Source: a virus
Virus record (IMG/VR): IMGVR_UViG_3300050138_000571
Coordinates: 9,784-73,783 of that record
Direction: 5' to 3' (one strand)
DNA: 64,000 nt
Shown here one piece after another: positions 43,445-62,706 of this stretch (position 1 is the first letter of the stretch; each line of letters begins with the position of its first letter). The notes under the pieces were generated by a model. That model did not search any database. It was not told the origin of the DNA and saw only the letters and a list, made by a program, of their open reading frames with translations. Position numbers and translations under genes: made by a program.

Positions 43445-43451
43445 ATGATTG
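43445..43451 (-). promoter_or_regulatory. Motif B (CAATCAT)
   Basis: 7 nt before ATG 43438. Confidence 0.65.
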
Positions 43452-43459
43452 GTGCCGGA

Positions 43460-44035
43460 TTAGATCCAGGCCCAGATGCGGTGCCAGGTGCGCGCAATCC
43501 ATCCAGAAGCGACGTTTGCGTCTTCCTTGGCCCGGGCCTCCAGCTCCTTGGCGGCGGCCACAGCGGCTTCCTGGGTGGCCTTGGCGGCCATGGCAGCCGT
43601 GGAGTCGACAACGGCGACGACCACGGGGTTCTTGAGGTGGCCTACCACCGTCTCCAGCTCCTTGATCACCCTGGACTTGTCGGCCTCAGCCTTGACAGAG
43701 TTGACGAAGGCGGTCAACGCGGTCTCGACGCCCTTGATGGCAGCGTGCGCGTCGGCGTTCAGCTTCTCTTCGACGGCTTTCGCGTCGGCCACAACCTTCG
43801 CGGCTTCCGCTTTCGCGTCAGCATCCATCTTCTCGCAGGCGGTGCAGACGAACTTGCAGCCCTTAGCGACGATCTTCTCGGCCTCGGCGACACCCAGGCG
43901 CATATCCTTGAGGGCGTCCGCCACGATGGCCTTGGCGTCCTTGACGACGACGGTCTCGACCTTTTGGACCTCGCCAACGACGGCAGTTTCGGCCGATTTG
44001 ATGGCCCCTTCAACTTCTTGAACCAAATTACTCAT
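43460..44035 (-). CDS. Ala/Val/Lys-rich repetitive helical protein with Trp-rich amphipathic C-terminus
   Basis: Repeats such as VV.DAKA; ends WIARTWHRIWAWI; preceded by CAATCAT. Confidence 0.6.
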   Translation of the reverse strand: MSNLVQEVEGAIKSAETAVVGEVQKVETVVVKDAKAIVADALKDMRLGVAEAEKIVAKGCKFVCTACEKMDADAKAEAAKVVADAKAVEEKLNADAHAAIKGVETALTAFVNSVKAEADKSRVIKELETVVGHLKNPVVVAVVDSTAAMAAKATQEAAVAAAKELEARAKEDANVASGWIARTWHRIWAWI

Positions 44036-44038
44036 AGT

Positions 44039-44581
44039 TCATATGATTGAGAGTGTGTTTGTATAGAGACGTAACTGTCGCGCAATGGCCTCAGTCCTGG
44101 GGTCCAGTTTGAAATTGATGCGCGAGAACTCCCCGAATGCCGCCAGCGCGGCCCGGTCGTAGGCGAGCGCGGCCTGGACCGGGGAGAGGAAGTAGCCAAG
44201 GTGACGGAGCTTGCCGTTGCTCCTGACGTAGGCCCTCCACTTATTTTGTCGGCTCCCCCAAGAGACCCCCTTGAACCCGCTGGTATTATTCGCCTGACGG
44301 TCGCGGTTCGCGCTGTTCAGGTCGCGGGGGTCGGGTCTCAGGTTGCTCTCTCGATTGTTCAGACCGTTGCGGTCGACGTGATCAGGCGGTCCGACAATGC
44401 CCATTCTGCGGGCGATGACCTGATGGAGCGCAACGGTCGTCCGGGTGCCGTCCGGATTACGGACGGAGCGCTGAGCATAGACGGTCTTGTTGCCCTTTTT
44501 TGCACACCAATTAAATGCGATCAGATCGGCGTGTTTGTCGTCGATCGTTGTGACCTTGCCCTGAGTGAGTTGGATCTCCAC
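44039..44581 (-). CDS. HNH-AP2 homing endonuclease (paralogue of 35906-36415)
   Basis: DHVDRNGLNNRESNLR; NNTSGFKGV...W.A......YLG/HLG...AA.AYDRAA. Confidence 0.88.
   Translation of the reverse strand: MEIQLTQGKVTTIDDKHADLIAFNWCAKKGNKTVYAQRSVRNPDGTRTTVALHQVIARRMGIVGPPDHVDRNGLNNRESNLRPDPRDLNSANRDRQANNTSGFKGVSWGSRQNKWRAYVRSNGKLRHLGYFLSPVQAALAYDRAALAAFGEFSRINFKLDPRTEAIARQLRLYTNTLSII
44043..44049 (-). promoter_or_regulatory. Motif B (CAATCAT)
   Basis: 8 nt before ATG 44035. Confidence 0.65.
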
Positions 44582-44587
44582 ACCAAC

Positions 44588-44599
44588 CTATAGCGAACG
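44588..44599 (-). promoter_or_regulatory. Phage promoter motif A
   Basis: Exact 12-mer, 7 nt before the HNH-AP2 GTG. Confidence 0.8.
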
Positions 44600-44601
44600 C
44601 C

Positions 44602-45069
44602 CTATCGATCTGGGGGCACGACGGTGAACGCGCTGCCGAGCGAGACCGTCGGCCTCTCGTACGCGAACTTGTAATTCGTCCCGTTCTCGACCAGATCGCC
44701 AGAGATGGTCTGCGTGGAGACGACGGTAGTCGATGGGGCCTGCCCCATCGACCTTCCGCACTTCGAGCAGGCCGGGGGCGTGATGCTCATCCAGACCTGC
44801 GGGAATTCGTGGCTGCCGCCCATCGGGCACATGTCGTTGTAAATGATCTGCGGCCACGGGAGGGGGTACTGCGGCTGGTATGGCGCATCTTTCGAGCCCT
44901 TCATCAGCTCGTCGATGAGTTTCCCGATGCTTCCCATGTCCCCGAGGCCGGGGCAGGCAGGGGCCGTCTTGATGGTGATCGGCGCCGAATCGATGAAGGG
45001 TCCCAGCTCAGCGGCCGTGCCCTCTAATTCGATTATTGTGCCGTCTTTCTTCGTGATCTTTGCTTTCAT
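44602..45069 (-). CDS. Hypothetical protein
   Basis: Start reassigned to ATG 45069 (MKAKITKKDG); contains C..G..H...C..C. Confidence 0.5.
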   Translation of the reverse strand: MKAKITKKDGTIIELEGTAAELGPFIDSAPITIKTAPACPGLGDMGSIGKLIDELMKGSKDAPYQPQYPLPWPQIIYNDMCPMGGSHEFPQVWMSITPPACSKCGRSMGQAPSTTVVSTQTISGDLVENGTNYKFAYERPTVSLGSAFTVVPPDR

Positions 45070-45202
45070 TGGTCGCCCTTCGTGATGGATCGTAGCTCTG
45101 CTCGGACCCTGGTTCGTTCCCGCCCTCGGCCTCGATACGCTTTGTCGGGGCAACAGCCGCAAAGCAGCCGTCCCCGCTCCCGACGGTTACTACCGTAGGC
45201 CG

Positions 45203-45532
45203 TCACGGCGTAGACACCGTCTCGATTCGGAGGTTTTCTGTACGCATTAGGTCATCCACCTTCCGATCGATGGACGCGTACCCCTCGGCAATCACCGCGG
45301 CCTGGGTATGGGCCCATCTGACAAACTTGGGGTTGATGGACAACCGCCGGAGCGCCTCCCTGCGATTCTGATGCTGGGACCGCTGCGACTCCGATTCCCC
45401 GATGGCGCCGGACGGCTCGTGGGTAAACCGGATCGCGGAGGAGGTCTTGTTGCGCTTCTGGCCGCCGGCCCCCGATCCCCGGTACTGCTCTTCTCGCAGG
45501 TCAGATGGCTTGATGGAGAAAAGAACGGGCAT
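45203..45532 (-). CDS. Stand-alone peptide-chain-release-factor (RF-1/GGQ) domain protein
   Basis: [25 protein letters not shown]...SQRSQ.QNR..AL..L, the class I RF catalytic domain only. Confidence 0.88.
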
Positions 45533-45541
45533 CGCGCCTGA

Positions 45542-45548
45542 ATGATTG
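45542..45548 (-). promoter_or_regulatory. Motif B (CAATCAT)
   Basis: 10 nt before the RF-like ATG. Confidence 0.65.
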
Positions 45549-45554
45549 GGACGA

Positions 45555-46049
45555 TTACGCGATGCGGACGTATCCTACTCGGTTCGAGTCGCTGGTCGTC
45601 CTGCGGTCGAGCGCCCAGACCCCAGTGCCCTCGCGTGAGCCCTGGGGGTCGGAGTTCGGATCGACCGTCTGCAGCTTCCCCGTGTCGTCCATGCCTACGA
45701 CGAGAAAAGCGTGTCCATGGATCTTGTCGTCATCGATATTGATGCCGACAACCGGGAGCATGTCCGGGGTCAGGTCGGCGGGCGCGATCTGCAGGTCGGG
45801 GTTGTTCGACCACAGGTGCAAGGCGGACCCGGCCTTCTTGAACGTAGGGGCGACACCCAGCTCGGCAGCGGCTTCGTGCACCCAGAGGGAGCAGGCAGAC
45901 GCGCAGTAGGCGGATCCGTGGGGGATCCCCGTGTAATCTTGGTACTGCTCGATGCGGGGGCCCAGGTTTGACTTGGGCGGGGTCTCCAAGATGCCGACGT
46001 CGTGCGAAGCGATTTCGGAGGTCTTTGTGGCGAGGGCAGTTGCTTCCAT
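45555..46049 (-). CDS. CHAP/NlpC-like cysteine hydrolase (candidate endolysin or virion hydrolase)
   Basis: N.GP.I..Y......G..YCAS (Cys), HGH..LV (His), T.D.NS. Confidence 0.65.
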
Positions 46050-46055
46050 GCCCCA

Positions 46056-46062
46056 ATGATTG
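46056..46062 (-). promoter_or_regulatory. Motif B (CAATCAT)
   Basis: 7 nt before the CHAP-like ATG. Confidence 0.65.
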
Positions 46063-46091
46063 GGGGCCCGCCGGCCTAAGACCGCGAATCC

Positions 46092-47972
46092 TTACGACAG
46101 GCCGCCCTGAACCCAGTTGGTGCCGTCGTAGTGGAGGACCAGCAAGCTGTTGGCGCTGACCGTGGTCACGTTGGCGCCGGCCTGGAGCAGGATCGAGGCC
46201 GTGCCGGCCGGGGGCGATGCGGCTTTGTGGTGGACGACGACACCGGCCGCGACGCGCAAATACAGCGTGCTGCCGAGCTGCCACGGCGCGATCGTGATGA
46301 ACGAGAACGCTCCAGTACCGCCGCCAACCGAGTTCCAGTTTTGGGTGAATGTCAGCGTCGTGGCGCCGGATTGCGCGGACACGAAAGTGGCGTTGACGAT
46401 GATCGTGCTCGAATTGAGCGAGAGCCCGTTGATGCCTGGAGCCGTAATGGACACAGGTCCGCTGACGGATTGGATCGTGAGGGCGCCGCCGGAACTGCCA
46501 CCTGCCTGAAGCAACAGGTCGCCGTTGTTGGCGAGAAGGGTGAGAAGCGCGTTGTCTGAACGGAGCGTGGCCGGGCCAGCGCCGTTGGTGCGGATCATGA
46601 TGCTGGAATCGTTAATGCCCCCGCCGATCAGGAGCTGACCGATTCCCAGGGCTCCGAAGAGAACGCCACTCCCGCTGCCGCCGCCGCCGCGGGAGATGCC
46701 GGTGGCATAGGCGAGGCCCTCCAGGTCAACGGCTACGACCCTAGGATCGCTGCCGCTGTCGAGGCTGGTGGTGAGCGCCGACAGCTTGATAGTGCCGGAG
46801 CTGCTATCCGTGGCCAGTTTGAAGCTGGATCCGACCGCGTAGGATTGGTCGCGGACAAAAATGCTGGCGCCGTAGCGCCACGCCAGAACCCAGCGGCTGC
46901 CGGGAACCGCTGGCGTCCCGAGCAACGACAGCGACGTTTTTTGGGCATTCAGTGACGTGACACCAGCCCGGGTTCTGGTCACTGTCCGGTCCAGGTCGAC
47001 GTAGATGCACTCGCCGTCCGCGAGATCCGTCAAACCGGCGGAGTCAGTGGTCTGGTCGGTGATCTCGTTGTAGACCCCAGTACTGTTGGCGAACGTGATG
47101 GTCAAGCCTTGCCAGTGCAAGTTGCTTGATACCCACTCGAAATGCTCTCCGCTTGACGAGAACGAACTCCCGGTCCGGGCCATGACCACGTTGCGGTCCG
47201 AGGTCGGGCTGTACCAGTATTCGCCGCCGCCAAGCTCCCAGACGCGAGTCATTGTCGCGTCCATCCACGACTTCATGCTGCCGATGGCCTTGTCGCCGCC
47301 GAGAAACGGATCCGCGGAACTGGTCTCGTTTCGGCCGGCCGGCCACGAGTACGTGTTCTTGACGTTGGGAGTTGAGCCGCCAGTGCCCAGGCGCCACAGG
47401 ATGTTCCGGGCGTCCTGCACGGACGTGATGCTGCTGTTGGCGTCGAGGGTGACCTTTGCCAGCGGGCAGACGCCGCTGTTGGAGTCGAAGTCCGACGCGG
47501 AAATGATAATCGTGTAGTCGATCGTGCGGGCGAGGGGGATCGACTTGGTGACCTCTGCGCCTTGGTCCGGATCGAAAAACTGTACGGCATCGGTCGTCGT
47601 GGGATCATTCGCGCGCGAGAAGTCCAGGCCGATGTAATTCGTTTGGCTTGGGAGGAAGGAGCCCCGGATCTTGGGGTTGGTGCTCGCCAGCACTTCGTTG
47701 GGGCGGTTGGCGTCTACCTGGAAGACGGTGCCGGCGTCGGTGGCGTAATAGTGCATCAGCACGCCGCCCGCCACCTGGATCTGGAGGGCGCCGGGCTGCG
47801 TGACGCCGGACGTGATCAGGTTGAACCCAGCTACGATGGCCGGGATGCGGTTGGCCATGATGGTTCCGGCCAACAGGTCGAAGTCGGCCGCGACCGCGCT
47901 TTCGATGGCCCGCAAAAATGGGACATCGACTCTTTGCTGGGCGTTCCAGGAGACCTGCCGTTTGACTGCCAC
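46092..47972 (-). CDS. Baseplate/tail-fibre-associated structural protein
   Basis: In the tail cluster; Gly/Ser-rich beta-fibre-like C-terminus; GTG start 11 nt from CAATCAT. Confidence 0.55.
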   Translation of the reverse strand: MAVKRQVSWNAQQRVDVPFLRAIESAVAADFDLLAGTIMANRIPAIVAGFNLITSGVTQPGALQIQVAGGVLMHYYATDAGTVFQVDANRPNEVLASTNPKIRGSFLPSQTNYIGLDFSRANDPTTTDAVQFFDPDQGAEVTKSIPLARTIDYTIIISASDFDSNSGVCPLAKVTLDANSSITSVQDARNILWRLGTGGSTPNVKNTYSWPAGRNETSSADPFLGGDKAIGSMKSWMDATMTRVWELGGGEYWYSPTSDRNVVMARTGSSFSSSGEHFEWVSSNLHWQGLTITFANSTGVYNEITDQTTDSAGLTDLADGECIYVDLDRTVTRTRAGVTSLNAQKTSLSLLGTPAVPGSRWVLAWRYGASIFVRDQSYAVGSSFKLATDSSSGTIKLSALTTSLDSGSDPRVVAVDLEGLAYATGISRGGGGSGSGVLFGALGIGQLLIGGGINDSSIMIRTNGAGPATLRSDNALLTLLANNGDLLLQAGGSSGGALTIQSVSGPVSITAPGINGLSLNSSTIIVNATFVSAQSGATTLTFTQNWNSVGGGTGAFSFITIAPWQLGSTLYLRVAAGVVVHHKAASPPAGTASILLQAGANVTTVSANSLLVLHYDGTNWVQGGLS

Positions 47973-47982
47973 TGTAGCCTTT

Positions 47983-47989
47983 ATGATTG
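47983..47989 (-). promoter_or_regulatory. Motif B (CAATCAT)
   Basis: 11 nt before GTG 47972. Confidence 0.65.
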
Positions 47990-47996
47990 CAACGGC

Positions 47997-48419
47997 TTAA
48001 GCCGTGGTCTCGTTCTTGGCGTCAATCGACAAAAACGTAATCGTGCCCTTTACGATCCCCCGCTCGGGCACGCTCCAGGACTGTCCCGAAATTGCCACAC
48101 GGGTCGACTCAAACAGGACCCGGCTGGACCGGCGCTCCAATAAAACGAGCGACACGTATCGAGTCTTCCCGACGTCGATCAGCGGTGCCGTAAGTCCAGC
48201 CCCCTCGGCCCCGCCGTCATTGAGCGTCCGCAGCACGTACAGGGTCCCCCCGACCGAAGTCGTTGAGTTAGCGAGTTCGTACGGTTGCGGAGAGTCAACC
48301 CCTCGAAGCTCTTCGATCGGCGTCGAGATGTCCCAGTCGATCCCGGCCACGCGTCCGTAAGGGACTGCGTTCACGAGCAGAATGACCTGCGCGTTGGAAA
48401 TTGTGATGGACTGGCTCAT
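47997..48419 (-). CDS. Tail tube-like / baseplate hub protein
   Basis: 140 aa, I..EE.RG.DS..P.E.......G.L...R, final F..ID pattern typical of tube-fold proteins. Confidence 0.5.
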   Translation of the reverse strand: MSQSITISNAQVILLVNAVPYGRVAGIDWDISTPIEELRGVDSPQPYELANSTTSVGGTLYVLRTLNDGGAEGAGLTAPLIDVGKTRYVSLVLLERRSSRVLFESTRVAISGQSWSVPERGIVKGTITFLSIDAKNETTA

Positions 48420-51400
48420 TTAGTCGCCCTCTCGGAGCGTCGCCAGCTCATCCTCAAGGGAGTCACCACCCCAAACCACGACAGCGTCAGAGAGCTTCTG
48501 CGCTCCCGAGGTGGGGTCTCCGGCATTGCCCAGGCCCACGTCCGACGGATAGACGACGGACCTCTCGATGGCGAGCCCCGAAGCCTGGATGTCGTCCAGG
48601 GCTGCCCCGGCGGCGATGCGGCCGGCAGCGGAGGAAGTGAGGTAGAAGTTGCCAGTCAAAGGATCCGCGTTGGGATCCGGCACGAAGGGTAGGTTGGACT
48701 GCAGGAGCGTAACAGTGACGCCGGCCGGAATGGAGGCCGGGAAGCGGAAGGAAGCGTCGAGCTTGAGCGAGACGTTGTCTAGGCGGCCGATGTACTTCAC
48801 GGGCCCGACCTGGCCCTTGAAGCCGAAATTGAATACCAGGTACCCGACCTGATCGGGGAATAGGAGCGCGGGATTCGAGTCGCTGCCGGTGTCGAGGGCG
48901 AAGGTGGCGTGGCTTTGGTTGCCGTTGATGGCTTGCCCCAACACCGCCACGATCCCGGTGACCGAGAGCCCGGCCCTGGGATCGTACGAGAACGGCCCGG
49001 GCAGGCCCGCAGGCGCGGGGAGCGCTCTTTCGGGGGTGATGGTCGCCCCGGCAGTCTCGATGTACGGGGTTCCGCGGGAGATGGTGTCCGAAACCGAGTA
49101 AGTGAACGCGGTCGGGCTCGGGACCGACGTGATGGAGGCTTGACGGTTCATGCCACCCGCCCGAACGACGTCCGAGCCCGGCACGACTACGTAGTTGAGC
49201 TTGGCGGTGTTATTGGCGGCTTGGAGGCCACCGACCACCACGAAGGCGTCCGTTGCAGCCAGGCCTCCGCTGGACAGCGTGAGCGCAGTGCCAAGAACCG
49301 CCCGCGACGTCCGCCAGCGCATGATGGCGATGTCGAGCGTCTCAACGACGGGGCTTCCCCCGCCCGCCACGAAGACGGCATTGCGCGTCGGCAAGTAGCT
49401 GACGACTGGATTCACGCGGCCGACAGACATCGGGGGCAACGCGGCCCAGAGCCCGGTGCTCGGGTCGTAGATCTCGCAGCTCGCAAGCGTGTTGTTGTAG
49501 GAGTGCTGGGTGGCGTTGCCGCCGGTGCCGCCGACAACGAGTACGCGGCCATCGGGCAGGACCAGCGAGCCGAAGTCGCGGCGCGCGTCCGTCATGGAAG
49601 CGGCCGTAGCCCAGGTGTGCCCGGCGACGGAGTAGGATTCGACCGAGTTCAAGATGTTCGAGGCCCCGTCGACGCCCCCGATTGCGAGTCCGTTTCCGTT
49701 GGCGAGACCGACGAGCTGGTGCCACATGCGCGCCCTGATCATGCTCCCTCGCGCGGTCCAGGTGCCGGTGCCAGGATCGAAAGTGTAGGAGGTCGCGACC
49801 ACGGCGCCTCCACTCCAGCCGCCGCCGATTAGGGCATTGCCGCCGGTCAGGGTACATTGGCCGTGACCAGCCTTCACCGCCGGCAAGGTCCCACTCGTCA
49901 GCAGGTTCTGCGCGGGCACGTTCGTGTACGTGTAGAGGTCCCAGGCGTTCAGGGCGGTGCCCGAGACGTCGGTGTCGCTGTTGGTGCCGCCAGTGACCAG
50001 GACGCGGCCGTCAATGAGCGCGGAGGCCCCGATGCCGCGTTTGCCGACCGTCTGCGTGTGTGTGACGAGATTGGTCCATTTGTACCCGAGAGCCCGGCCT
50101 CCGTTGCCGAGTACGGTGTCGCTCGTAATCTCGAAGATCTTGGGATTGACGATGGCGGCGTCAGTGCCAGGCGAGGTCTGGGTCATGCCTCCGACCAACA
50201 TCAGCAGGCCTTCGGCCGTGCGAACCATCCTGTGATTCACGGCTTGGACGGTGTCCGCCTCGCTGGCCATCGACTGCAGGGACGCGCTCGTGGTGCCGGT
50301 CGCAATGTTCGAGCTGAAGTCGCCGCTGATCGTGCCGGCGGTGATGGGCGGCGCCGCCCCAGTCGGGATCGCCCCGTCGATGAATACCTGATCCCCAACC
50401 GCCATCCCGTGGGTGGTCGACGTCACGCCCGTCACGACTCCGCTGGGAGCCCGGATCAGAGAAGTGAGGGTAATGGGGGCCTGCACGTTTACGTATGCTC
50501 CGGTGCCGGGACCGCGCCGAACGATGTTCGTAGTGGCCGGTAGCTCGACCTTCCCGAGCTGCGTCACGATCACGTGTCGTTGCTGGTCGTATAGCGTCGC
50601 CTTCGTGGGGCGGAAAAACATTGTGGTCGTGAAGTCCGTTTGCGCGTACGTGCCAACCGGAACAGCCACGTAGGCGATTTCGAAGTACTGATGTACGGGT
50701 GGCGACATCGACGCCACCACGTAGTACTTGTCGACCGCGGTCACTGGGAATGTCCCCTGGATCCCGGCAACGGCAAAGGGATCGGTCGGGTCCCCGTAGA
50801 TGTGCACGAGGTCGCCGATGCGCAGCTTCCCAAAATCGAATCCCCCCGAGGCCGTTGAGAATCGGGCAACCCCTGGAGCCGGGGCTGTGACCGTCCACGT
50901 GGTCGCGGAGAAGTCGCTGATGTCGAAGACTGGCGTCGGGAATTTGAGCCACCGCTGCGCTGACCCCCCGACCACTCGGACACTGGAGGAAAGGCCTCGG
51001 CTGCCGCTGTAGACGCGGACAAAGGTCGAGCGGGCGGTCGGGTCAGTGTACGCGATGGCGTAAGCGTTGCTTCCGGCCTCGTTGAAGGCCCGGTTGATCT
51101 CACCACTCACTTCCAGGGCCGTCGCCGCCGCGACCTCGGTGTAGTGGGTGCGATCGAAGGTAACAGTGACCGTGACCTTCTCGTCGAGAAGCAGCACCAA
51201 CGTGTCCTGGTCAACCAGAGAGAACGGCTCGGCGCCGGTGGACGTGGAGACGCCGCGGACGGCATCAGGCCCGTAGAAGACCTCCAGGACCTCCAGGAAG
51301 GCCTCTTGGGTCAGCTTCTTGTTCTTCTTGATGATCGACAGTGCCCGGAAAACGTCATCGGACATTCCGACCGAAGCCGGCTTTACCTCTCCGAAGTTCG

Positions 51401-51656
51401 CCGCCGCTCGCTCCAGGTATTTGCCCGAAGCCGTGGAGATGAATAGCTGGTCAAAGGCTGCGAGGGCGTTGTCCCAATTCGTCTGATCTCCGGTCGCGAT
51501 GGCGGAGATCAGTGCGTCCCATCCAGGCCCAACCAAGGAAGGGTTTGTGAACTTCCGAAGCACCTCCTCGGCAGAATCGTTGGACGTGCCGGCCGCCAGG
51601 CCACTCTGGGTCTGGACCTGGTCGACCTGGAAAGTAAAACTAGATGCCATAGGCAA
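48420..51656 (-). CDS. Baseplate wedge-like protein with inserted kelch beta-propeller
   Basis: N-terminal LF..TA.G.YL...A...G..P wedge-like motif; kelch repeats (ARMWH, DARRDFG.L.LPDGRVLVVGG) at about 49190-50250. Confidence 0.65.
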   Translation of the reverse strand: MPMASSFTFQVDQVQTQSGLAAGTSNDSAEEVLRKFTNPSLVGPGWDALISAIATGDQTNWDNALAAFDQLFISTASGKYLERAAANFGEVKPASVGMSDDVFRALSIIKKNKKLTQEAFLEVLEVFYGPDAVRGVSTSTGAEPFSLVDQDTLVLLLDEKVTVTVTFDRTHYTEVAAATALEVSGEINRAFNEAGSNAYAIAYTDPTARSTFVRVYSGSRGLSSSVRVVGGSAQRWLKFPTPVFDISDFSATTWTVTAPAPGVARFSTASGGFDFGKLRIGDLVHIYGDPTDPFAVAGIQGTFPVTAVDKYYVVASMSPPVHQYFEIAYVAVPVGTYAQTDFTTTMFFRPTKATLYDQQRHVIVTQLGKVELPATTNIVRRGPGTGAYVNVQAPITLTSLIRAPSGVVTGVTSTTHGMAVGDQVFIDGAIPTGAAPPITAGTISGDFSSNIATGTTSASLQSMASEADTVQAVNHRMVRTAEGLLMLVGGMTQTSPGTDAAIVNPKIFEITSDTVLGNGGRALGYKWTNLVTHTQTVGKRGIGASALIDGRVLVTGGTNSDTDVSGTALNAWDLYTYTNVPAQNLLTSGTLPAVKAGHGQCTLTGGNALIGGGWSGGAVVATSYTFDPGTGTWTARGSMIRARMWHQLVGLANGNGLAIGGVDGASNILNSVESYSVAGHTWATAASMTDARRDFGSLVLPDGRVLVVGGTGGNATQHSYNNTLASCEIYDPSTGLWAALPPMSVGRVNPVVSYLPTRNAVFVAGGGSPVVETLDIAIMRWRTSRAVLGTALTLSSGGLAATDAFVVVGGLQAANNTAKLNYVVVPGSDVVRAGGMNRQASITSVPSPTAFTYSVSDTISRGTPYIETAGATITPERALPAPAGLPGPFSYDPRAGLSVTGIVAVLGQAINGNQSHATFALDTGSDSNPALLFPDQVGYLVFNFGFKGQVGPVKYIGRLDNVSLKLDASFRFPASIPAGVTVTLLQSNLPFVPDPNADPLTGNFYLTSSAAGRIAAGAALDDIQASGLAIERSVVYPSDVGLGNAGDPTSGAQKLSDAVVVWGGDSLEDELATLREGD

Positions 51657-51661
51657 GTCTT

Positions 51662-51668
51662 ATGATTG
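51662..51668 (-). promoter_or_regulatory. Motif B (CAATCAT)
   Basis: 6 nt before ATG 51656. Confidence 0.65.
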
Positions 51669-55098: not shown

Positions 55099-55143
55099 TT
55101 ATCCGCGCCTGCGAACGGACTCAAAAAGATGGCTCACCCCCCA

Positions 55144-55150
55144 ATGATTG
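55144..55150 (-). promoter_or_regulatory. Motif B (CAATCAT)
   Basis: Intergenic, 46 nt before ATG 55098. Confidence 0.6.
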
Positions 55151-55161
55151 CGGGCCCCGAC

Positions 55162-58100
55162 TTAGACTCCGAGGAATGTCACGCCGATGTCAGTGGTCAG
55201 AGAGAGGATGAGCGGCTTTTCATTGGCGTTGACCGAGATGCTATCGCTTCCCACACCGTACGAGGGAGACACAATGGTGACCGCCAGGACCCCGACGACC
55301 TTGGCGGCGGCGGCAATGATCGCGCTCAACGCAATCGACTGTCCTACTCCCGTCTGATTCACGACCGTGGCCACGGCCGAGCGCACCCGGTCCGCGATTC
55401 CGTCCTGGGAGACGCCCGAGCGGACCCGAAGAAGGAGCGAAACCGAGATGCGCTTGATAAGCGGACCCGCGATGTCGACGTTGGCGCCTTCGGATGCCTC
55501 CCCGGGGTAGGTCGTGGGGTCCGCGGGGTCGCCGTAGATGACCTTGTTGGCTTCCGCGATGAGCCCGGTCGAATAACGGTACCCGTCCGAACCGGACGCG
55601 AACGTGAGAGGGAACGAGAGCTTGTCCAGGACCTTGATGACGGAGCCGGCGCTGCTGCCCATCGCCGAGTACTGAGAAAGCTGGTCCCAGCGGATATCGG
55701 TAAGGGTGCCGTCGACTTGGTTCGGGGCGATGCCGTCGACTTTGAGGATGAAGCTGGTCGGGCGGTTCTCGATCAGGTAAACTAGGCCGGCGGTGGTCGA
55801 GGTCAGGGCAGGGCCCGAGCCCTGGGGCACGGGAGTGCGCGTGCTGACGTCGACCGTGAATCGGTCAAGGTGCGTGAATTGGTCGCCCGAGCCCGCGCTC
55901 GTCTCGCCCACGGCCTTGACTTTCCACGTGCCCTGTTTTCCGTTGCCCCAGATCGGGGTCGAAATCACGAACAAGTCGCCCGGCATCACGCCGTTTGACG
56001 TGTAGATAGCGATCTCGCACTCGACGGTCTCGTCGATGGAGTCGGCGTTCTCAATGAACAGCCCCCCTGCGGCGCCGGTCTCCACGTTTACCGTGCGCAG
56101 GACCCGATAGATGCCCTGGTTCGTGGAAGAGACCTGGGGGAAGCCTCCGGTCGGCGAGACCGCGGGCGTAATCCGGACGTAGGCGCCGGCCTGAGCCGAC
56201 GACAGCCCGATGTTGCCGGCCAAGCCCATGTCCGAAACGAACACGAAGTCGCCCTGACGCTCGATCCGGACTTTCGCCTGGGTCGCGGCCACGATGGGAC
56301 CGACGACCGGGGCGCTGAACGTGACGAGGCCAGCTGAGTTCCAGCCGGTGATGGCGAGGCCGACTCCGAAGTTGTTGATGATCGGCAACGGGGTCGCGTT
56401 GTCGACGCGGCACCAAAAGCCCTTGCTGATGCCGACCGCGTCCGAGGTCTTGATGGTAGAAGCCCCCTTCGCGAGCAGGCTTTGCAGGGAGCCGATGATC
56501 GGCACCAGGACAGTATTGGCGAGGCCGCCCTGGACCTGGACGCCGCCGGCAGAGCCCGGGGTCAGAGATGCGATTTGGACCTTGGTGCCGTCGTCTGACG
56601 CCTGGATGCTGCACGCGGTGAAGAGGCCGGTGATGGTCGGCGTCTTCAGCCAATTCACGACGTTCTTGGTCGTGGACGGAGCGATGTGGATGACCTCGTC
56701 CTGCCAGGCCGCGTTCGCTGACAGGGTCCCGTTGATCGGCTTCTTGAACGTGAGCTGGTAGTTGCTGCCGGGCAGCACGGTGACCTGGACCCAGTTCACG
56801 CCGTCGGACAGTGAGTACCAGCCCTTGCTGTTGTCAAGGGTGTCGGTGGTCGGATTGACGATGGTGCCGCTGCCGTTGCCGAGTACGGCGGCGGTGATCG
56901 GGCACGTCGAGTTCGGGACAGCGGCCAGCGCGTTGATGGCGGCGACAACGGCCGTGCACGTCTGCGGCGTGTTGGTCATCACCTGCAGGTTCGTGGAGAC
57001 TCCGAGCGGCTGCCAGACCAGCGTCCCGCTGGGGGTGAGCCCAGATCCGTCGAGCTGATCGCCAGACAGGGTAGTGACGCTGCCGCCGCCAGCGGCGACG
57101 GCCGAGATCTGGAAAGTCAGGTTGCTGAATGCGCTGGTGCCTGCGTTGCAGCGGAAGAAGTCGGTGACCGCGGTCGAGCTGCCCGAGAACGTGGCTTCCC
57201 CGGCGGAGTCATAGGAGACGTCTCCGATGTTGGCGTCGGGCCCTGCGTTCGCGGCGGTCTCGGCGTACGAGATCGTGGTCGCGGAGCGGGAAGTGATGGT
57301 CTTCTGGCCCGAGCTGAAGTCGACGCTCGTGCTCTGGACCCAGACAACTGCACCGACCAGGAGACCATGGTCGGTCACGCCTGCGGGCAGTGTCAGCGTC
57401 AGCGTGTCGACGTTCGAAGTGCGGCTGGCGCTTCCGATCGCCAGGTTCAGGACCTGGAGAATGGTGGCGGTACCGCCGCCGTCGACGGCGGTTGCGGTCT
57501 GGCCGAGAAACGTCGTGTTGCGGACGGTCGGCGTGCGCAGGGCCCCCGAGGCCAGCCGGACGGTGACGTCGGTCTTGTCCGCCGCCATCGTCGTGGTGAC
57601 GTTGAGCGCAGTGTTCGGGGCCACGGGGTTGCCAAAGCGGACGCGGGCCGTGTCGCCTTCGGGCCCGAGCCTGTAGAAGCGGAAGAGCAATGACCGCGTC
57701 GAATCGCCGCTGAAGGCGACGGCGCGCGAGTTCATGTAGACGGAGAAATCGTTGAAGTCGTAGGTGCTCCCGAACGTGTTCTGGAGACCGGTGCTTGCGT
57801 CCGCGTCCGTGAACGTGTTCGTCTGCAGGTAGGTGTTGCCCACCGGCGCCAGCGCTCTCCACATCTTGATGGAGAAGCGCTTGGAGACGTCATTGTCGAC
57901 AATGACCGTGAGGTCGTCCGAGGGCCCGATTGCGAACGGGGCCGCGAGGTAAGCGCGATCGAGAGGCGCCCAGGGCTCGACGCTCGGATCGCGGAGGTCG
58001 ATGCGGGAGAGGTCGGTGTAGGCCTGCGTTCCCGTGATCCGGGTCCGGAAGCCCTGGTTGCTACCTGCGCGTGCGTAGAAGAACGTGGGCGAGTAAGCGC

Positions 58101-61100
58101 TGGTCCCGTCCGAGCCGCGCCACCAGTTGTGGAGACCGACGAGGGAGTAAGCTACGTCTACGAACGAGGCGCCGACGACGACGCTGCCTGCGGCCGTGTT
58201 TGCGCGCACGTTGATGTCATTGAAGGCCGGCGCCCCCAGCTCGCTCTTCGACTCTACCGAGCCCACGTGGTCGGTGAGGTTCTCGATGGCGGAGGCGGGC
58301 GTGAGCCCGAAGCCGGCGGCGGCCGGGTTCTGGGCGACTAGGGCGATGTCGCCGTACTGGGCGTGCGTGTTGGTCGTGATCCGGACCCTGTTGGTCTGGT
58401 AGATGGTGGCGGTGGCTCCGGTGAGTGCAGGCGGCAGCGAGAGGCCGGCCAGTCCCGGGTTCGAGGCGTCGGCGTTGACGACGGCAGCAAACGTGCTGGC
58501 GGTGTAGTTGGTGGCGACCGGGACATCGACCTCGCGGACGAGACCTGCGGTTCTGACGACGGCGGCGCCGTTCCCCGTCAGGGTGACGGTGCCGAGGGCC
58601 GGATCAGGCAGCGACCATGAGTCGGCGGTGTTGTCGTACTGCTCGATGGTGGCGGACGGCAGGAAGCCCCAAGCGGTCGAGAGCTGGACGGCGCCGCCGA
58701 TAGCGACGATCCGGTTCTTGATGGTGGCAGACCCGTTCGCGATGGCGACGGACTGGACCCTCCACCTTCCCGAGGTGTCGCGGGTGACGGTGTCGGAGGC
58801 GATGGTGGTGAAGGTCGTGCCGTCGTACTGGAAACCGACCGAGGACGCGAGGTCGCTGGAGGTGCCGTTCAGGCCGACGACGTGTCCGTTCGGCAAAGAA
58901 ACGAGGTCGTTCTCTTCGAAATTCATCGTGCTCGGGAGCGCGGTCTCTGCGCCCCAGAGGCCGGTGCCAATCGTGTAGATCTCGTACGTGCCCTTGCCCG
59001 TGGCTCCGAATTTTGCGCCGGCTGCGAGAACGGCGGTCGGAGAGGTCCCGACGCCCGCGAGCCCGAACGAAGACCGGGGCCGGGTCATGGACCCGGTGGC
59101 CGTGCACAGCAGCGTGCCTGCGGACCAGATCTCGGCCGTTGCCAGGTCGGCGCCGAGGTTGCTGACGCCGCCAACGATCAAGACGTTGTTGTTCGGCAGC
59201 CGAACCTGCCTGTGGCTGCGGCGCGCCGCTACCATGGAGCCGGTGGTGGCGAAGCTGTCGGAGCCAGGAACGTAGTCATAGAAAGCGATGACAGCGCCCG
59301 ACAGACCCTGGCCGCCGGTGATGAGGACGTTGTTGTTCGCGAGCAACGTGGCCTGATGCCGCATCACGCCCGCCGTCAATACCGAGGCCTTCGTGGTCCA
59401 GGTGTTGGAGGTCGGGTTGTAGACCTCCATCGAAGTCAGGAAGTTGCCGGCATCGTCCATGCCGCCGGTCACGAGGACGGTGCCGTCCGCGAGCAGGGTA
59501 GCCGTGTGGTACGCGCGCGCCGTCGACATGGGCGCGCAAGGCGTCGACAGGCTCGTGTTTGGGTCGTAGATCTCGCAGCTATCGGTGACGCCGACTGGGT
59601 TGGACGACATCGACGAAAGCGGGCTCACGCTGCCCCCGGTCGTCAACACTTTCGAGATCGAGGCCCCGGAGCCCGGAAGCGCCACTGAACGATGTCCAAC
59701 TCGCAGGGCTGCGCCGAGACGGCGCTCGACCACGATCGCGGTGCCGGTGGCGGAGACGACGCGGAACGCGCCCTGCAGAGATGCGTTCAGGGCCGGGTCC
59801 CAGAGGACCAGCCAGTCTCCGGCTTGAATGTTCACGAACGGAGTGCCGGCGCTCGCGAGCAGTCGGACGGTATGTCCCCAGTCGTGCATCGCGTAGACGC
59901 TGACGGTGATCGAGGTCGCGCTGTTGATGCCGGTCGTGACGATTTGCGCGTCCCCGTCGACCACGAACCACATCTTGGCCACGCTCGACAGCGTCGTCGG
60001 CGAGATGACATTGGACTGGGAGAAGGCTCGCGTATTGAGCGAGCCCAGCGACAGCCGATCGCCCGCCGTCAGAGCCGAAGTGAGTGTGATCTGTGATGCG
60101 TTCCGGTTGAGGACGAAATCCGGCGCCGCGCCCTGGGCGCTGACGACCGAGAACAGCTTGTTGGTGACCAACGTCGAGCCATTGAGGATGCTGACCGCCG
60201 ACTTGTTGCTGGCGCCGGAGTTGCTCGTCAGCACGATGCGGCCATTGCCATTGCTGGCGGTGACCCCGGGGACGGCCGCGTTGATGACCGAGACCCAGGC
60301 GTCGACGGTATTGCGCCCCATGCTGGTGAAGCCGGTCCCGGCGTCGATGAAGTTCTGGCCCGAAAAAGTGAAAGTGATCGATGGAGTCCCGTCGACTGAC
60401 AGGATCAAGGTCTGGGTCCCCGAGAGCGTGTCCCAATCGGAGAAGGCGAGGCCGGCGACGGAAGCAACGGTGCCGTCCTTGGTCATCAGGCGATCGTTCT
60501 TGTAGAGCTGGACCGTGTAGACGATGTTCGGAGGGAACAGGAGGGCGGCGTTCGCGTCGGTGCCGGCGCTGGCGATCACCTCGACGTCCTCATTGGTGTC
60601 CGTTTTGGCGAAGACGACGACCTGGGAGCCGCCCAGGGTCCTGGCCTGGAACGTTAGCTGCGGGTTCGCGTTGATCGAGGCGACGACCTCGTAAGCCGAC
60701 GCGTTGCCGATCGAGGCGAAGCCGCTGGAGTCGAAGACGTGGACCGAGGTCGTGCCGGCCACTTTGACCGACAGCACCGCGCCCTGAGACAGGGCGAATG
60801 GGGCGGTGTTCTGCGTCAGGCAGAAGGCCTTGGCGACCGGGCGCTGGGAGATCGAGATGTCCTGCTCGCCGCCAGCCGCGGAGTCGATGAGGATCTCGAT
60901 GGCTACCGGGGACGTCTGCTCCTCGTACCCGGTGCCGTCGTCGACGTAGAGGGTCGAGGTGTCCTTGCGGCGGATGATGTTGGAAGAAGAGACGCGCTTG
61001 TTCTCGTCGGTGGCAGTGATCCCCAAGACAGCGTTCTTGAGCGCGAGGGTGGTGCCGGTCTGGCGCGACTCGGCAACGGCGCGGATGCGCTCGCGGTAGG

Positions 61101-61914
61101 GGTCGTCCAGCTCGGTGTCGACGCCGTTGGAGAAAGGGAGGGGATTGGTGACGGTCGCTCCGGAGAAAGGCGGCTGCACGAACTGCACGATCGAGTTCGC
61201 GAGCACGTTGCCGACGGTCCCCTTGAGCTGTGCGACGACCGTGACTCCGGTGACTGAGGTCTCGCCGTCTAGTACCAGGGCCTTGTAGAGTGTGCGGAAC
61301 TGGACCGCGGACGCCACGTTCGCCTGGGGTGTCTGGCAGACAGTGCCCGGGCCAATGGTGCGGGCACCACCCTGGGCCAGAACCACGGTCTCGGTCGTGT
61401 TGTGGAACGAGGTGGTGCCGGTCGCGAGCGACAGCGTCCAGTGGGTCCCGACGTTGGTCTTGGAGGTGTAGGCGATGGGGCCTTCGTAGTTCGTTGTCCC
61501 GCGGCCGATATAGACGGAGCCTGTGGAGGGGAACGAAGTCGCATCGACAAGAGAGAGAACGGTGCTGCCCACGATCGGGGCCGAACCGCCTTGGAAGAGC
61601 GCGGTCGACTTTTTCGTGAACGAGCTATCGGAGATGGTGACGTTACCGCTGGACGCCGACTCCTGGAGCCGAGGGCACTGCTCGTCCTTGCCCCTGCGGT
61701 CGAGAGCGGTCTTGGTCGAGTTGTCCAGTGAGGTCGAGTTCAGGACCCCAAACGTGTCTTGAGAGGAACGGAGATCGCTGCGGGCCGCAGCTTCGAGCAT
61801 AGACAGGATTCCGCCGCCAACGCGGAGGTTTTTCACGCCGACCTTTGACCTGAACCCGTCTACGAGATCGGACAGGATCTGCTGGTACGACCTTGGGGTC
61901 GGGATAGTTCCCAT
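55162..61914 (-). CDS. Giant (2250 aa) baseplate J-like protein with kelch propeller
   Basis: Baseplate-J N-terminus (R.....S.G.V, V.A...G..GN, NP..F.NG.D.E.D..YRERI) and C-terminus. Kelch repeats (ARAYHTATLLADGTVLVTGG) at about 58610-59700. Confidence 0.75.
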   Translation of the reverse strand: MGTIPTPRSYQQILSDLVDGFRSKVGVKNLRVGGGILSMLEAAARSDLRSSQDTFGVLNSTSLDNSTKTALDRRGKDEQCPRLQESASSGNVTISDSSFTKKSTALFQGGSAPIVGSTVLSLVDATSFPSTGSVYIGRGTTNYEGPIAYTSKTNVGTHWTLSLATGTTSFHNTTETVVLAQGGARTIGPGTVCQTPQANVASAVQFRTLYKALVLDGETSVTGVTVVAQLKGTVGNVLANSIVQFVQPPFSGATVTNPLPFSNGVDTELDDPYRERIRAVAESRQTGTTLALKNAVLGITATDENKRVSSSNIIRRKDTSTLYVDDGTGYEEQTSPVAIEILIDSAAGGEQDISISQRPVAKAFCLTQNTAPFALSQGAVLSVKVAGTTSVHVFDSSGFASIGNASAYEVVASINANPQLTFQARTLGGSQVVVFAKTDTNEDVEVIASAGTDANAALLFPPNIVYTVQLYKNDRLMTKDGTVASVAGLAFSDWDTLSGTQTLILSVDGTPSITFTFSGQNFIDAGTGFTSMGRNTVDAWVSVINAAVPGVTASNGNGRIVLTSNSGASNKSAVSILNGSTLVTNKLFSVVSAQGAAPDFVLNRNASQITLTSALTAGDRLSLGSLNTRAFSQSNVISPTTLSSVAKMWFVVDGDAQIVTTGINSATSITVSVYAMHDWGHTVRLLASAGTPFVNIQAGDWLVLWDPALNASLQGAFRVVSATGTAIVVERRLGAALRVGHRSVALPGSGASISKVLTTGGSVSPLSSMSSNPVGVTDSCEIYDPNTSLSTPCAPMSTARAYHTATLLADGTVLVTGGMDDAGNFLTSMEVYNPTSNTWTTKASVLTAGVMRHQATLLANNNVLITGGQGLSGAVIAFYDYVPGSDSFATTGSMVAARRSHRQVRLPNNNVLIVGGVSNLGADLATAEIWSAGTLLCTATGSMTRPRSSFGLAGVGTSPTAVLAAGAKFGATGKGTYEIYTIGTGLWGAETALPSTMNFEENDLVSLPNGHVVGLNGTSSDLASSVGFQYDGTTFTTIASDTVTRDTSGRWRVQSVAIANGSATIKNRIVAIGGAVQLSTAWGFLPSATIEQYDNTADSWSLPDPALGTVTLTGNGAAVVRTAGLVREVDVPVATNYTASTFAAVVNADASNPGLAGLSLPPALTGATATIYQTNRVRITTNTHAQYGDIALVAQNPAAAGFGLTPASAIENLTDHVGSVESKSELGAPAFNDINVRANTAAGSVVVGASFVDVAYSLVGLHNWWRGSDGTSAYSPTFFYARAGSNQGFRTRITGTQAYTDLSRIDLRDPSVEPWAPLDRAYLAAPFAIGPSDDLTVIVDNDVSKRFSIKMWRALAPVGNTYLQTNTFTDADASTGLQNTFGSTYDFNDFSVYMNSRAVAFSGDSTRSLLFRFYRLGPEGDTARVRFGNPVAPNTALNVTTTMAADKTDVTVRLASGALRTPTVRNTTFLGQTATAVDGGGTATILQVLNLAIGSASRTSNVDTLTLTLPAGVTDHGLLVGAVVWVQSTSVDFSSGQKTITSRSATTISYAETAANAGPDANIGDVSYDSAGEATFSGSSTAVTDFFRCNAGTSAFSNLTFQISAVAAGGGSVTTLSGDQLDGSGLTPSGTLVWQPLGVSTNLQVMTNTPQTCTAVVAAINALAAVPNSTCPITAAVLGNGSGTIVNPTTDTLDNSKGWYSLSDGVNWVQVTVLPGSNYQLTFKKPINGTLSANAAWQDEVIHIAPSTTKNVVNWLKTPTITGLFTACSIQASDDGTKVQIASLTPGSAGGVQVQGGLANTVLVPIIGSLQSLLAKGASTIKTSDAVGISKGFWCRVDNATPLPIINNFGVGLAITGWNSAGLVTFSAPVVGPIVAATQAKVRIERQGDFVFVSDMGLAGNIGLSSAQAGAYVRITPAVSPTGGFPQVSSTNQGIYRVLRTVNVETGAAGGLFIENADSIDETVECEIAIYTSNGVMPGDLFVISTPIWGNGKQGTWKVKAVGETSAGSGDQFTHLDRFTVDVSTRTPVPQGSGPALTSTTAGLVYLIENRPTSFILKVDGIAPNQVDGTLTDIRWDQLSQYSAMGSSAGSVIKVLDKLSFPLTFASGSDGYRYSTGLIAEANKVIYGDPADPTTYPGEASEGANVDIAGPLIKRISVSLLLRVRSGVSQDGIADRVRSAVATVVNQTGVGQSIALSAIIAAAAKVVGVLAVTIVSPSYGVGSDSISVNANEKPLILSLTTDIGVTFLGV

Positions 61915-61917
61915 CGC

Positions 61918-62691
61918 TTACGATGATTGAGGTCGGTGGGTGTGAGCGTGAATTCTGTCGATATGAGAAAGGAACGCTTCGACGCCCATCTCCCATTTCA
62001 TGATGTTGCAAGGGGAGCAGCACGGGACCGCATTGACGATATCGTACCCTAATGCGTTGTCGACCCTGTCGACTCCGTTGGCTACATATGGGTGTTGGGT
62101 CTTTCGGCTGTAGACCATGTTAGGGGCGGCCCCGCAATAACGGCAAGATGCTGAGGTGAGGGACGCGAACTCCTCTATAGTTAGGTTCCACGACAAACTG
62201 CGGTCGCGGGCCCCCGCCTTATAGTGGGTGAACATAAACCTGACCCCTCCCGTGAGCCCTCCACTGGAAACATATTTTTGATGACCCAGCTCCCGCAACC
62301 TGTCCGCCGCCCCACACCCGCAGGACTGTATGCCGTTCGCAATCTTTAACTGCGCCGCACTCGTCACGAACTCGGCTCTGCAATCGCAAGTACAAGCAGC
62401 CTGGGCCAGGCGTTTACCCGATACCGATTGGCACATCCCGTCGACCACCAATTTGCCATAGCGTTTGCCCGTCAGATCTCCGGTTTTGGCGTACGCGAGG
62501 TCCCGCTTCAGGCACCCGCAAGACCTGACGGCGCCTTTCTTTAGGTTGTACCCAGGGCAGAGGGTAGACCCGCCGCACTCGCAAGCGCACTCCCACAGCG
62601 TATTGGTAAAGCGGTCCTTGCCGGCCCTACCCTTCACGGTTAGGCGGCCGAAGTGTAGTCCCGTATAATCAGTGCCTCTCGCTGGTTTCAT
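61918..62691 (-). CDS. HNH homing endonuclease with two FGRLTV-type DNA-binding repeats
   Basis: G.HFGRLTV...W.C.CECG and G.RYGKLVV...C.CDC; C-terminal C.YC...NGVDRVDN..GY...N.VPCC..CN.MK. Start reassigned to ATG 62691. Confidence 0.8.
   Translation of the reverse strand: MKPARGTDYTGLHFGRLTVKGRAGKDRFTNTLWECACECGGSTLCPGYNLKKGAVRSCGCLKRDLAYAKTGDLTGKRYGKLVVDGMCQSVSGKRLAQAACTCDCRAEFVTSAAQLKIANGIQSCGCGAADRLRELGHQKYVSSGGLTGGVRFMFTHYKAGARDRSLSWNLTIEEFASLTSASCRYCGAAPNMVYSRKTQHPYVANGVDRVDNALGYDIVNAVPCCSPCNIMKWEMGVEAFLSHIDRIHAHTHRPQSS
61923..61929 (-). promoter_or_regulatory. Motif B (CAATCAT)
   Basis: 9 nt before the baseplate-J ATG. Confidence 0.65.
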
Positions 62692-62699
62692 GTCGAAAC

Positions 62700-62706
62700 A
62701 TGATTG
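62700..62706 (-). promoter_or_regulatory. Motif B (CAATCAT)
   Basis: 9 nt before the HNH ATG 62691. Confidence 0.65.

Follow-up and report, generated by a model that had tools for sequence, protein, structure and literature searches.

CAATCAT before gene starts of an Mx1-like soil myophage, a candidate core of a phage-specific late-class promoter

What is the role of a seven-letter word, CAATCAT (hereafter motif B), that recurs a few nucleotides before start codons in a 64,000-nt stretch of viral DNA (the window)? The source phage is an Mx1-like soil myophage of ~169 kb, kin of Myxococcus phage Mx1; Mx1 was recovered by protein-level searches only, and when 20 kb were compared at the DNA level with cultured phages, no near-identical match emerged. 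We propose that motif B forms the core of a late-class promoter specific to the phage, short, -10-like and without a -35 partner, and we give this reading, which is based on sequence comparison, a probability of about 0.65.

Motif B in the window and the contig

We detected 15 exact copies of CAATCAT in the window, 14 of them on the minus strand. The expectation was 4.8 +/- 2.5 copies, and none of 100 dinucleotide shuffles reached 15. The 11 sites that a sequence-only reading had listed before gene starts all exist:

1257..1263, minus strand: motif B, 9 nt before ATG 1247; 327-aa product
8772..8778, minus strand: motif B, 9 nt before ATG 8762; RuvC-like resolvase, 205 aa; kept in the complete relative G001
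43445..43451, minus strand: motif B, 6 nt before ATG 43438; 112-aa product; site identical in G001
44043..44049, minus strand: motif B, 7 nt before ATG 44035; 191-aa product
45542..45548, minus strand: motif B, 9 nt before ATG 45532; 109-aa RF-1-domain / ArfB-like protein; kept in G001
46056..46062, minus strand: motif B, 6 nt before ATG 46049; 164-aa product; kept in L009 and G001
47983..47989, minus strand: motif B, 10 nt before GTG 47972; 626-aa conserved virion-module protein
51662..51668, minus strand: motif B, 11 nt before ATG 51650, or 5 nt before TTG 51656; 1076-aa Kelch-repeat tail fibre, with a GC hairpin immediately upstream
55144..55150, minus strand: motif B, 6 nt before GTG 55137, the start of a 12-codon micro-ORF, and 45 nt before ATG 55098
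55099..55137, minus strand: leader micro-ORF VSHLFESVRRRG, whose TAA stop directly adjoins ATG 55098 of a 1127-aa virion structural protein
61923..61929, minus strand: motif B, 8 nt before ATG 61914; 2250-aa baseplate-J-like giant protein
62700..62706, minus strand: motif B, 8 nt before ATG 62691; 257-aa HNH / endonuclease-VII-like homing endonuclease

One of these copies (44043..44049) overlaps the 3' end of an upstream AP2-domain gene, and another (61923..61929) lies inside the 3' end of the HNH gene. In Mx1 the ortholog of the 327-aa product is gene 7617-8612, which carries CAATCTA 6 nt upstream of its ATG; the portal ortholog comes next after the 327-aa gene. Orthologs of the 626-aa protein have CAATCAT, CAATCTT or TAATCTT located 7-55 nt upstream. 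The RF-1, RuvC-like, HNH, baseplate J and Kelch fibre labels were upheld, whereas the earlier label of hydrolase or lysis gene was not confirmed for the 164-aa product: it is syntenic with the Mx1 endolysin, yet similarity to that endolysin was undetectable. Neither this product nor four other motif-B products (327, 112, 191 and 626 aa) could be assigned to a family in Pfam, PHROG or NCBIfam. The free-standing homing-endonuclease genes are preceded by their own copy of motif B.

The site before ATG 55098 had been placed at 46 nt; the site is real, its spacer is 45 nt, and it also follows the general rule through the GTG 6 nt after the motif. The micro-ORF stop abuts the ATG, which suggests that the micro-ORF and the 1127-aa gene may be coupled by termination-reinitiation.

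Four window copies had no gene start behind them (14872, 16448 and 39298 on the minus strand, 19537 on the plus strand), and not three as claimed before, 14872 being the additional one. This number equals the chance background.

The 96-kb contig contained 20 copies, 13 of which were found 3-12 nt upstream of called starts, all co-directional, where 0.16 were expected (binomial P = 6e-23); the observation made from the sequence alone was confirmed. As a control we used all 210 permutations of the letters of CAATCAT: the mean permutation had 3 contig occurrences and 0.15 copies upstream of starts, and no other permutation behaved like CAATCAT. Similarly, 17 of the 38 CAATCAT copies of G001 were located 3-12 nt before gene starts (P = 1e-25). 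Whole-genome counts were 38 for CAATCAT in G001 and 38 for CAATCTT in G002, compared with 0-3 for the reversed word. The word is also sharply defined, since its one-mismatch variants were almost never found at gene starts.

These results bear on two other explanations. That the pattern is a by-product of chance or base composition would agree with the four start-less copies, which match the shuffled background of ~5. Such an origin is refuted by the shuffles, the reversed-word counts and the permutation control, the P values of two genomes stand against it, and at least 10 related phages keep the word before orthologs; we give it practically no credence. Alternatively, motif B could be a DNA operator of a late-timing phage activator or repressor, for instance a small sigma-region-4-like HTH protein or an AP2-domain protein, with the real promoter determinants elsewhere. 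An exact 7-mer that barely tolerates mismatches would suit an operator, genes for small HTH and AP2 DNA-binding proteins are found nearby, and 6 of the 20 CAATCAT copies extend into the palindrome CAATCATTG. Most copies are non-palindromic, however, and operators need neither a strict orientation nor a fixed 6-nt distance to the start. In addition, no further conserved promoter-like element accompanies the word, and the late block is not enriched in sigma-70-type promoters. We regard an operator as quite improbable.

Spacing and conservation in related phages

Pooled distances from motif B to the start codon showed a sharp peak at 6 nt (33 sites) and a next peak at 9 nt (11 sites). With AATCAT or AATCTT matched to a -10 hexamer, the A occupies -11 and the T -7, and given the modal 6-nt gap the start codon would coincide with +1; the T(-7) alignment is insecure because the final base is not constant within the family (T, A or C in Mx1 and L023). 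Purines were only weakly enriched at the seventh position 3' of the word (69%), a point that, like the variable final base, weakens the promoter reading. Outside the 7-mer, information content was near zero in G000 and G001, with no conserved -35 or flank, and G002 showed only a gCCG prefix. In the late block, scans for sigma-70-type promoters and for terminators both stayed at background.

The word is conserved upstream of orthologs in at least 10 related phages. Close relatives have CAATCAT at the same genes, and in L009 and G001 it is kept before orthologs with changed flanks. More distant relatives and Mx1 carry CAATCTT or TAATCTT, found in L011-L016, L022, G002 and Mx1; L023 has CAATCTA. 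By sequence comparison, CAATCAT is this phage's version of [C/T]AATC[A/T]T, a word shared across Mx1-like myxophages. The association with structural genes extends beyond the window: in Mx1, which was annotated independently, the portal, prohead protease, tailspike, baseplate J and Kelch fibre genes each have the word upstream, as does the pre-sheath gene, and variants of it stand before the sheath gene itself.

We further examined whether motif B could be a ribosome-binding site and rejected this reading: in Mx1, L015, L016 and L018-L021 the word lies 12-55 nt upstream of the start, with a normal GGAG-type Shine-Dalgarno between the two, and it has no GGAGG-like core. The anti-Shine-Dalgarno at the 16S 3' tail is CCUCC, which has no complementarity to CAATCAT.

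As for position in the transcription unit, motif B was present at 9 of 38 head genes of G001 versus 15 of 181 inner genes. Within one 37-bp divergent gap of this genome (146923/146961) there is nothing but a leftward motif B and a rightward motif A, the latter a second start-proximal motif described below.

Several observations would also fit a word that acts in RNA. It could mark a site of endonuclease processing or be bound on the mRNA by a factor from phage or host, with either of two effects: shortening polycistronic late transcripts so that their 5' ends lie near start codons, or raising translation without a Shine-Dalgarno. Such a word would be akin to the start-associated sequences (SAS) of mycobacteriophages in their proposed role. 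The word is confined to the coding strand, fills the position of the absent Shine-Dalgarno, is largely unpaired in predicted folds, and often lies in 20-60-nt gaps directly behind the preceding stop in co-directional operons; some Shine-Dalgarno-like runs also begin immediately 3' of it. On the other side, the word heads divergent units such as the 37-bp gap, where no co-directional upstream transcript is expected, and in relatives up to 55 nt and a separate Shine-Dalgarno stand between it and the start. The missing complementarity to the 16S 3' tail argues in the same direction, no conserved RNA structure was found in 57-nt folds of all 20 copies (mean z = -0.8), and the sharp 6-nt mode fits the geometry from -10 element to start better than looser base-pairing signals. 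We consider an action in RNA unlikely.

Two features of the spacers speak against the promoter reading. With spacers of 7-12 nt, the mRNAs would have leaders of 1-5 nt that lack a Shine-Dalgarno and so would differ from classic leaderless mRNAs. In a few relatives, Shine-Dalgarno-like runs follow 1-2 nt after the word (CAATCATtGGAG, aAGGA and gtGAGGAG in G001). A transcript that starts 7 nt downstream would exclude such runs; they would then serve read-through transcripts only, or the true start would be further upstream.

Motif A, motif B and a candidate sigma factor

Motif A (GCGTTCGCTATAGR) is a -35-less element of 12-14 bp, made of a TATAGR hexamer and an upstream extension. It ends 6 nt before start codons in 19 of its 33 copies, and it is kept in relatives with the core TTCGCTAT. 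Both motifs are -35-less, conserved and placed 6 nt before starts; motif A is longer and has another gene set. Replication, chaperonin and small genes, on either strand, follow motif A; those behind motif B are virion, RuvC, HNH and RF-like genes. As noted from the sequence alone, the two never occur together before one gene in the window. Because the motifs mark different gene sets, a two-class programme is plausible. The earlier claim of a late promoter class distinct from motif A is partly supported: motif B is conserved before virion orthologs, is split from the ribosome-binding site and heads divergent units, while the term "late" is taken from gene function. We infer the start site, the late timing and the reading factor.

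According to the promoter reading, a phage factor would redirect the RNA polymerase of the host to open the DNA at the AT-rich word and start transcription ~7 nt downstream of it. In the source phage the start codon would usually lie at the start point or within ~5 nt, so that the virion, RuvC, HNH and RF-like genes are proposed to be made from leaderless or near-leaderless mRNAs. Many motif-B genes would use their own promoter inside tightly packed operons. The best candidate for the reading factor is a phage sigma-70-like protein without region 4.2:

20640..21680, plus strand: sigma-70-family protein, 346 aa, spanning regions 2 to 4.1 and ending before the region 4.2 helix-turn-helix

Its family profile matched RpoD/SigA (E = 5.6e-8) over sigma-70 residues 374-571 only, and the top 50 PDB matches of its fold model (pLDDT 82.5) were primary sigma chains. 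There is one such gene per genome (in Mx1 its product is WNM70309.1), so two motif classes face a single recognisable sigma-like gene; 81 homologs of the sigma family were identified. The protein may be the reader of one -35-less class or the other; we infer the link to motif B, and the gene could equally read motif A. Since both motifs and the sigma gene are all family-wide, their co-occurrence cannot assign it to either.

Searches of three complete genomes turned up neither a T7-type nor a multisubunit RNA polymerase. PF00940 and PF00623 had no match in four records, although the PF00940 search was also blank on control genomes. The single match to the DxDGD catalytic motif, in the prohead-protease-like protein of G002, was dropped, as the segment is absent from G000 and G001.

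A much wider scheme may be drawn from these elements, which we offer as speculative and rather doubtful. In Mx1-like myxophages the whole post-early programme would be run from two tiny -35-less words fused to start codons. Leaderless mRNAs would be nearly the sole source of late virion proteins, with the words read by host polymerase that carries a phage sigma lacking region 4.2. Micro-ORF reinitiation and translation-rescue genes (the ArfB-like RF-1 protein, a deformylase and a peptidyl-tRNA hydrolase) would have a supporting role. Clades would have lost or gained leader length, with Shine-Dalgarno-bearing leaders kept in Mx1 and absent from the clade of the source phage.

If the promoter reading holds, [C/T]AATC[A/T]T predicts ~35-40 late-promoter sites per genome, a testable map for large soil phages of the Mx1 group. 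Mx1, the sole cultured relative, infects Myxococcus, and because both Mx1 and its host are cultured, a direct test is possible. We found no promoter description in the Mx1 literature searched, and a literature search on the word CAATCAT itself gave unrelated primer matches only. Motif B also allows start-codon calls to be corrected; the Mx1 prohead protease, for instance, probably starts at 13023 rather than 13002. Finally, one clade has the proposed promoter word directly at the start codon and another has a normal leader between the two, which makes the family a natural series for studying the evolution of leaderless expression and promoter choice by a sigma without region 4.2.

Comparison with known systems

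Cluster K mycobacteriophages carry an asymmetric conserved word, SAS, located 3-7 bp before the starts of a gene subset in one orientation (PMC3203893). This is a 13-bp GGGATAGGAGCCC-like word with AGGAG that can pair with 16S rRNA; it marks non-structural genes and has a proposed translation role, its function being unproven (PMC3203893). Motif B is likewise a start-proximal word of one orientation that is conserved across a phage group. We rejected it as a SAS-type word, however, as its sequence is different, it has no Shine-Dalgarno core, it marks virion genes, and it separates from the Shine-Dalgarno in relatives.

The late promoters of T4 (TATAAATA) consist of a single short AT-rich -10-type word without a -35 element; their reader is the sigma-like gp55, a protein without -35 recognition that acts with gp33 and the sliding clamp. 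They are present in dozens of copies, many within operons directly before virion or resolvase genes, and free-standing homing-endonuclease genes have their own copy; the late transcripts of T4 have ordinary leaders that include a Shine-Dalgarno. Motif B resembles these promoters in being short, AT-rich, -35-less and present in many copies, in its placement, often inside operons, before virion, resolvase and homing-endonuclease genes, and in the company of a phage sigma-family protein that ends before region 4.2. It differs in its sequence, in abutting the start codon, and in the larger size of the sigma-like protein (346 aa).

Parallels for leaderless mRNAs adjacent to a -10 element are known from the Thermus phages phiYS40 and P23-45. 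In Deinococcus, validated -10 motifs adjoining leaderless ORFs end 6-7 bp before the start codon (PMC12340547). The Deinococcus-Thermus motif is the host TANNNT, read genome-wide by the host primary sigma factor (PMC12340547). Both systems have a -10-like element in the position of the ribosome-binding site, and the 6-nt mode of motif B equals this 6-7 bp distance, whereas motif B (CAATCWT) is phage-specific and limited to one gene class.

CAATCAT copies and their position before gene starts

We inspected every copy of CAATCAT (motif B) in its context, with gene starts taken from a map built on codon usage over the entire source contig (G000, an IMG/VR phage contig of 96,292 bp and 61.5% G+C, in which the window spans bases 9784-73783). 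The window contained 15 copies, 14 of them on the minus strand, against a shuffled expectation of 4.8 +/- 2.5, and none of 100 dinucleotide shuffles reached 15. The 11 sites listed by the sequence-only reading, which had proposed a late promoter before structural and lysis genes, were all borne out; its three copies without a gene start became four (14872, 16448, 19537 and 39298), about the chance background.

1247, 8762, 43438, 44035, 45532, 46049, 47972, 51650/51656, 61914, 62691 (window): start codons with CAATCAT 5–11 nt upstream
55098 (window): start codon with CAATCAT 45 nt upstream
Outside the window: starts of a 239-aa gene and a 120-aa gene, each with CAATCAT 6 nt upstream
Outside the window: gene with a strong AAGGAG, CAATCAT 57 nt upstream

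No Shine-Dalgarno sequence was found at the 11 window genes, where CAATCAT occupies its position. The proposed enrichment before starts was confirmed across the contig: 13 of the 20 copies lay 3–12 nt upstream of a called start, where 0.16 were expected (P = 6e-23). As a composition-matched control, the full set of 210 permutations of these letters averaged 3 copies, 0.15 of them upstream of starts. The word is sharply defined, since one-mismatch variants were nearly missing at gene starts.

Some copies had particular contexts:

G000:C1:1303-1344 (outside the window): divergent gap with two copies on opposite strands, back to back and 28 bp apart, one with an ATG 6 nt downstream, the other ~85 nt upstream of a 151-aa gene
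39298-39304 (-): orphan copy on the strand opposite a plus-strand gene; 6 nt later a GTG opens just a 6-codon ORF, and the copy may have arisen by chance or mark an antisense start
14872, 46056, 55144 (window), G000:C1:4825, G000:C1:75380: copies among the 6 of 20 that extend to the palindrome CAATCATTG (CAAT-C-ATTG), the one at 46056 flanked by GCCCC/GGGGC; the extension had no evident function

Genes behind the motif and its conservation in relatives

The genes behind CAATCAT encode a 2250-aa baseplate-J-like protein, a 1076-aa Kelch-repeat fibre, a 1127-aa virion structural protein, a RuvC-like resolvase, an RF-1-domain (ArfB-like) protein and an HNH endonuclease; family searches gave no match for five further products, and the lysis label was not confirmed. 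Motif A (GCGTTCGCTATAGR) precedes other genes (GroEL-like, helicase, DnaE and many small genes). Going by gene function alone, we infer that the CAATCAT class is late. Motif B also precedes free-standing homing-endonuclease genes: the HNH gene at 62691, two endonuclease-VII-like genes in the complete relative G001 and a GIY-YIG-like gene outside the window. Neighbouring observations were:

G000:C1:4099-4818 (-), outside the window on the 5' side: 239-aa GIY-YIG-like homing endonuclease (IIYALADPRSGQWRYIGKS...), exactly between motif B and a prohead-protease-like gene
45203-45532 (-): 109-aa RF-1-domain (ArfB / peptidyl-tRNA-hydrolase-like) protein behind motif B in the late block
44039-44581 (-): 180-aa AP2-domain protein with motif A, the sole such case among the late-block motif-B genes; motif B at 44043 overlaps its 3' end

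In G001, motif B lies directly before the prohead-protease-like gene, whose first codons (MAS) are the same as in G000, and the endonuclease gene appears to have been inserted at the promoter-gene junction in G000. The annotation of Myxococcus phage Mx1 includes a peptide deformylase and a peptidyl-tRNA hydrolase; these translation-rescue genes thus occur in phages that seem to depend on leaderless mRNAs.

With the 626-aa protein as query, 15 related viral contigs were recovered, and protein searches found Mx1 (169.6 kb) as the sole cultured relative. CAATCAT is kept before the same genes in the close relatives L009 and G001 (the record of L010), with changed flanks. The more distant relatives carry CAATCTT (L011-L016, L022 and G002) or CAATCTA (L023), in each case first or nearly first among the enriched upstream words. 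Each complete genome has 38 copies, strongly strand-biased, versus 0–3 of the reversed word; 17 of the 38 CAATCAT copies in G001 precede called starts (P = 1e-25).

Under the depositors' own annotation, Mx1 has [C/T]AATCTT before the portal, prohead protease, tailspike, baseplate J and Kelch fibre genes and the gene preceding the sheath, and the variants CAATCTA and TAATCTC upstream of the sheath gene and of the one beside it. Among the window's genes, the 327-aa, portal-like, fibre, baseplate and 626-aa ones have their orthologs among these word-bearing Mx1 genes; the scan of other structural genes that the sequence-only reading had asked for was therefore positive. For the prohead protease of Mx1 (OR576727.2), the start given at 13002 lies upstream of CAATCTT at 13010; this gene call is probably 7 codons too long, because the ATG at 13023 sits 6 nt after the word and agrees with ortholog starts.

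Promoter-like geometry and the RNA-level alternatives

Pooled over four phages, the distance from word end to start codon had a sharp mode at 6 nt (33 sites), followed by 9 nt (11 sites). The window's one long-gap site also fits the 6-nt rule through a micro-ORF:

55099-55137 (-): 12-codon micro-ORF with GTG 6 nt after motif B and TAA directly abutting the ATG of the 1127-aa virion gene

This arrangement resembles leaderless loading and then reinitiation; a comparable micro-ORF following motif A (18050-18148) had been pointed out in the sequence-only reading. Aligned as a -10 hexamer, AATCAT/AATCTT places A at -11 and T at -7, the last base being variable in Mx1 and L023, and gaps of 7–12 nt would imply leaders of 1–5 nt. 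In Deinococcus, validated -10 motifs of leaderless mRNAs lie 6–7 bp before the ORF (PMC12340547). The flanks showed neither conservation nor a -35 partner, and sigma-70-type promoters in the late block were at background level.

A ribosome-binding site was considered and rejected: CAATCAT lacks complementarity to the 16S anti-Shine-Dalgarno sequence, and in relatives the word lies far upstream with a separate Shine-Dalgarno in between (Mx1 baseplate J, 36 nt, GGGGAGG; Mx1 626-aa ortholog, 22 nt, GGAGA; L018-L021, 17–55 nt, GGAG-type sites). Shine-Dalgarno-like words occurred only at long gaps: 0/56 at <=9 nt, 6/17 at 10–14 nt and 13/34 at >=15 nt (background 16%). Some relatives have such runs right after the word, which a transcript start 7 nt downstream would leave out; purine enrichment at position 7 past the word was weak. 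The word is over-represented heading divergent units (9/38 heads versus 15/181 inner genes in G001), and a purely RNA-level role is hard to square with a 37-bp divergent gap because its only conserved elements are motif B leftward (6 nt before a GTG) and motif A rightward. Predicted RNA folds around the word shared no structure.

Candidate reader and comparison with known systems

Searches of G000-G003, the source contig and the three other records compared, gave no hit for a T7-type or multisubunit RNA polymerase. A 346-aa protein family has one copy per genome; its profile matched RpoD/SigA (E = 5.6e-8) over sigma-70 residues 374–571 (regions 2 to 4.1), stopping before the 4.2 helix-turn-helix. 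The top 50 PDB matches of its model (pLDDT 82.5) were primary sigma chains, and in Mx1 the ortholog carries the annotation "putative sigma factor". A sigma-like protein without -35 reading would suit a -35-less promoter, making it a candidate reader of motif B. Its gene sits in a motif-A operon behind a helicase; in a regulatory cascade, this position would suggest that it acts on the following class, motif B. Motif A, likewise -35-less and family-wide, could equally be its target. A further ORF may encode a regulator or the region-4 partner that is lacking:

G000:C1:79350-79697 (+), outside the window (69567-69914 in window coordinates): 115-aa ORF with a weak sigma-70 region-4-like helix-turn-helix (PF08281, E = 2.9e-4; PF04545, E = 1e-3; neither reaching the cut-off), conserved in G001 and G002

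The Mx1 literature examined contained no promoter description, and the promoter reading of motif B is directly testable in the cultured Mx1/M. xanthus pair. Motif B differs from mycobacteriophage start-associated sequences, which contain a Shine-Dalgarno core (PMC3203893). On the proposed reading it would operate in the manner of T4 late promoters, where a sigma-like factor recognises a short word that serves as -10 alone, together with the leaderless layout of Deinococcus-Thermus, in which a -10 stands next to the ORF.
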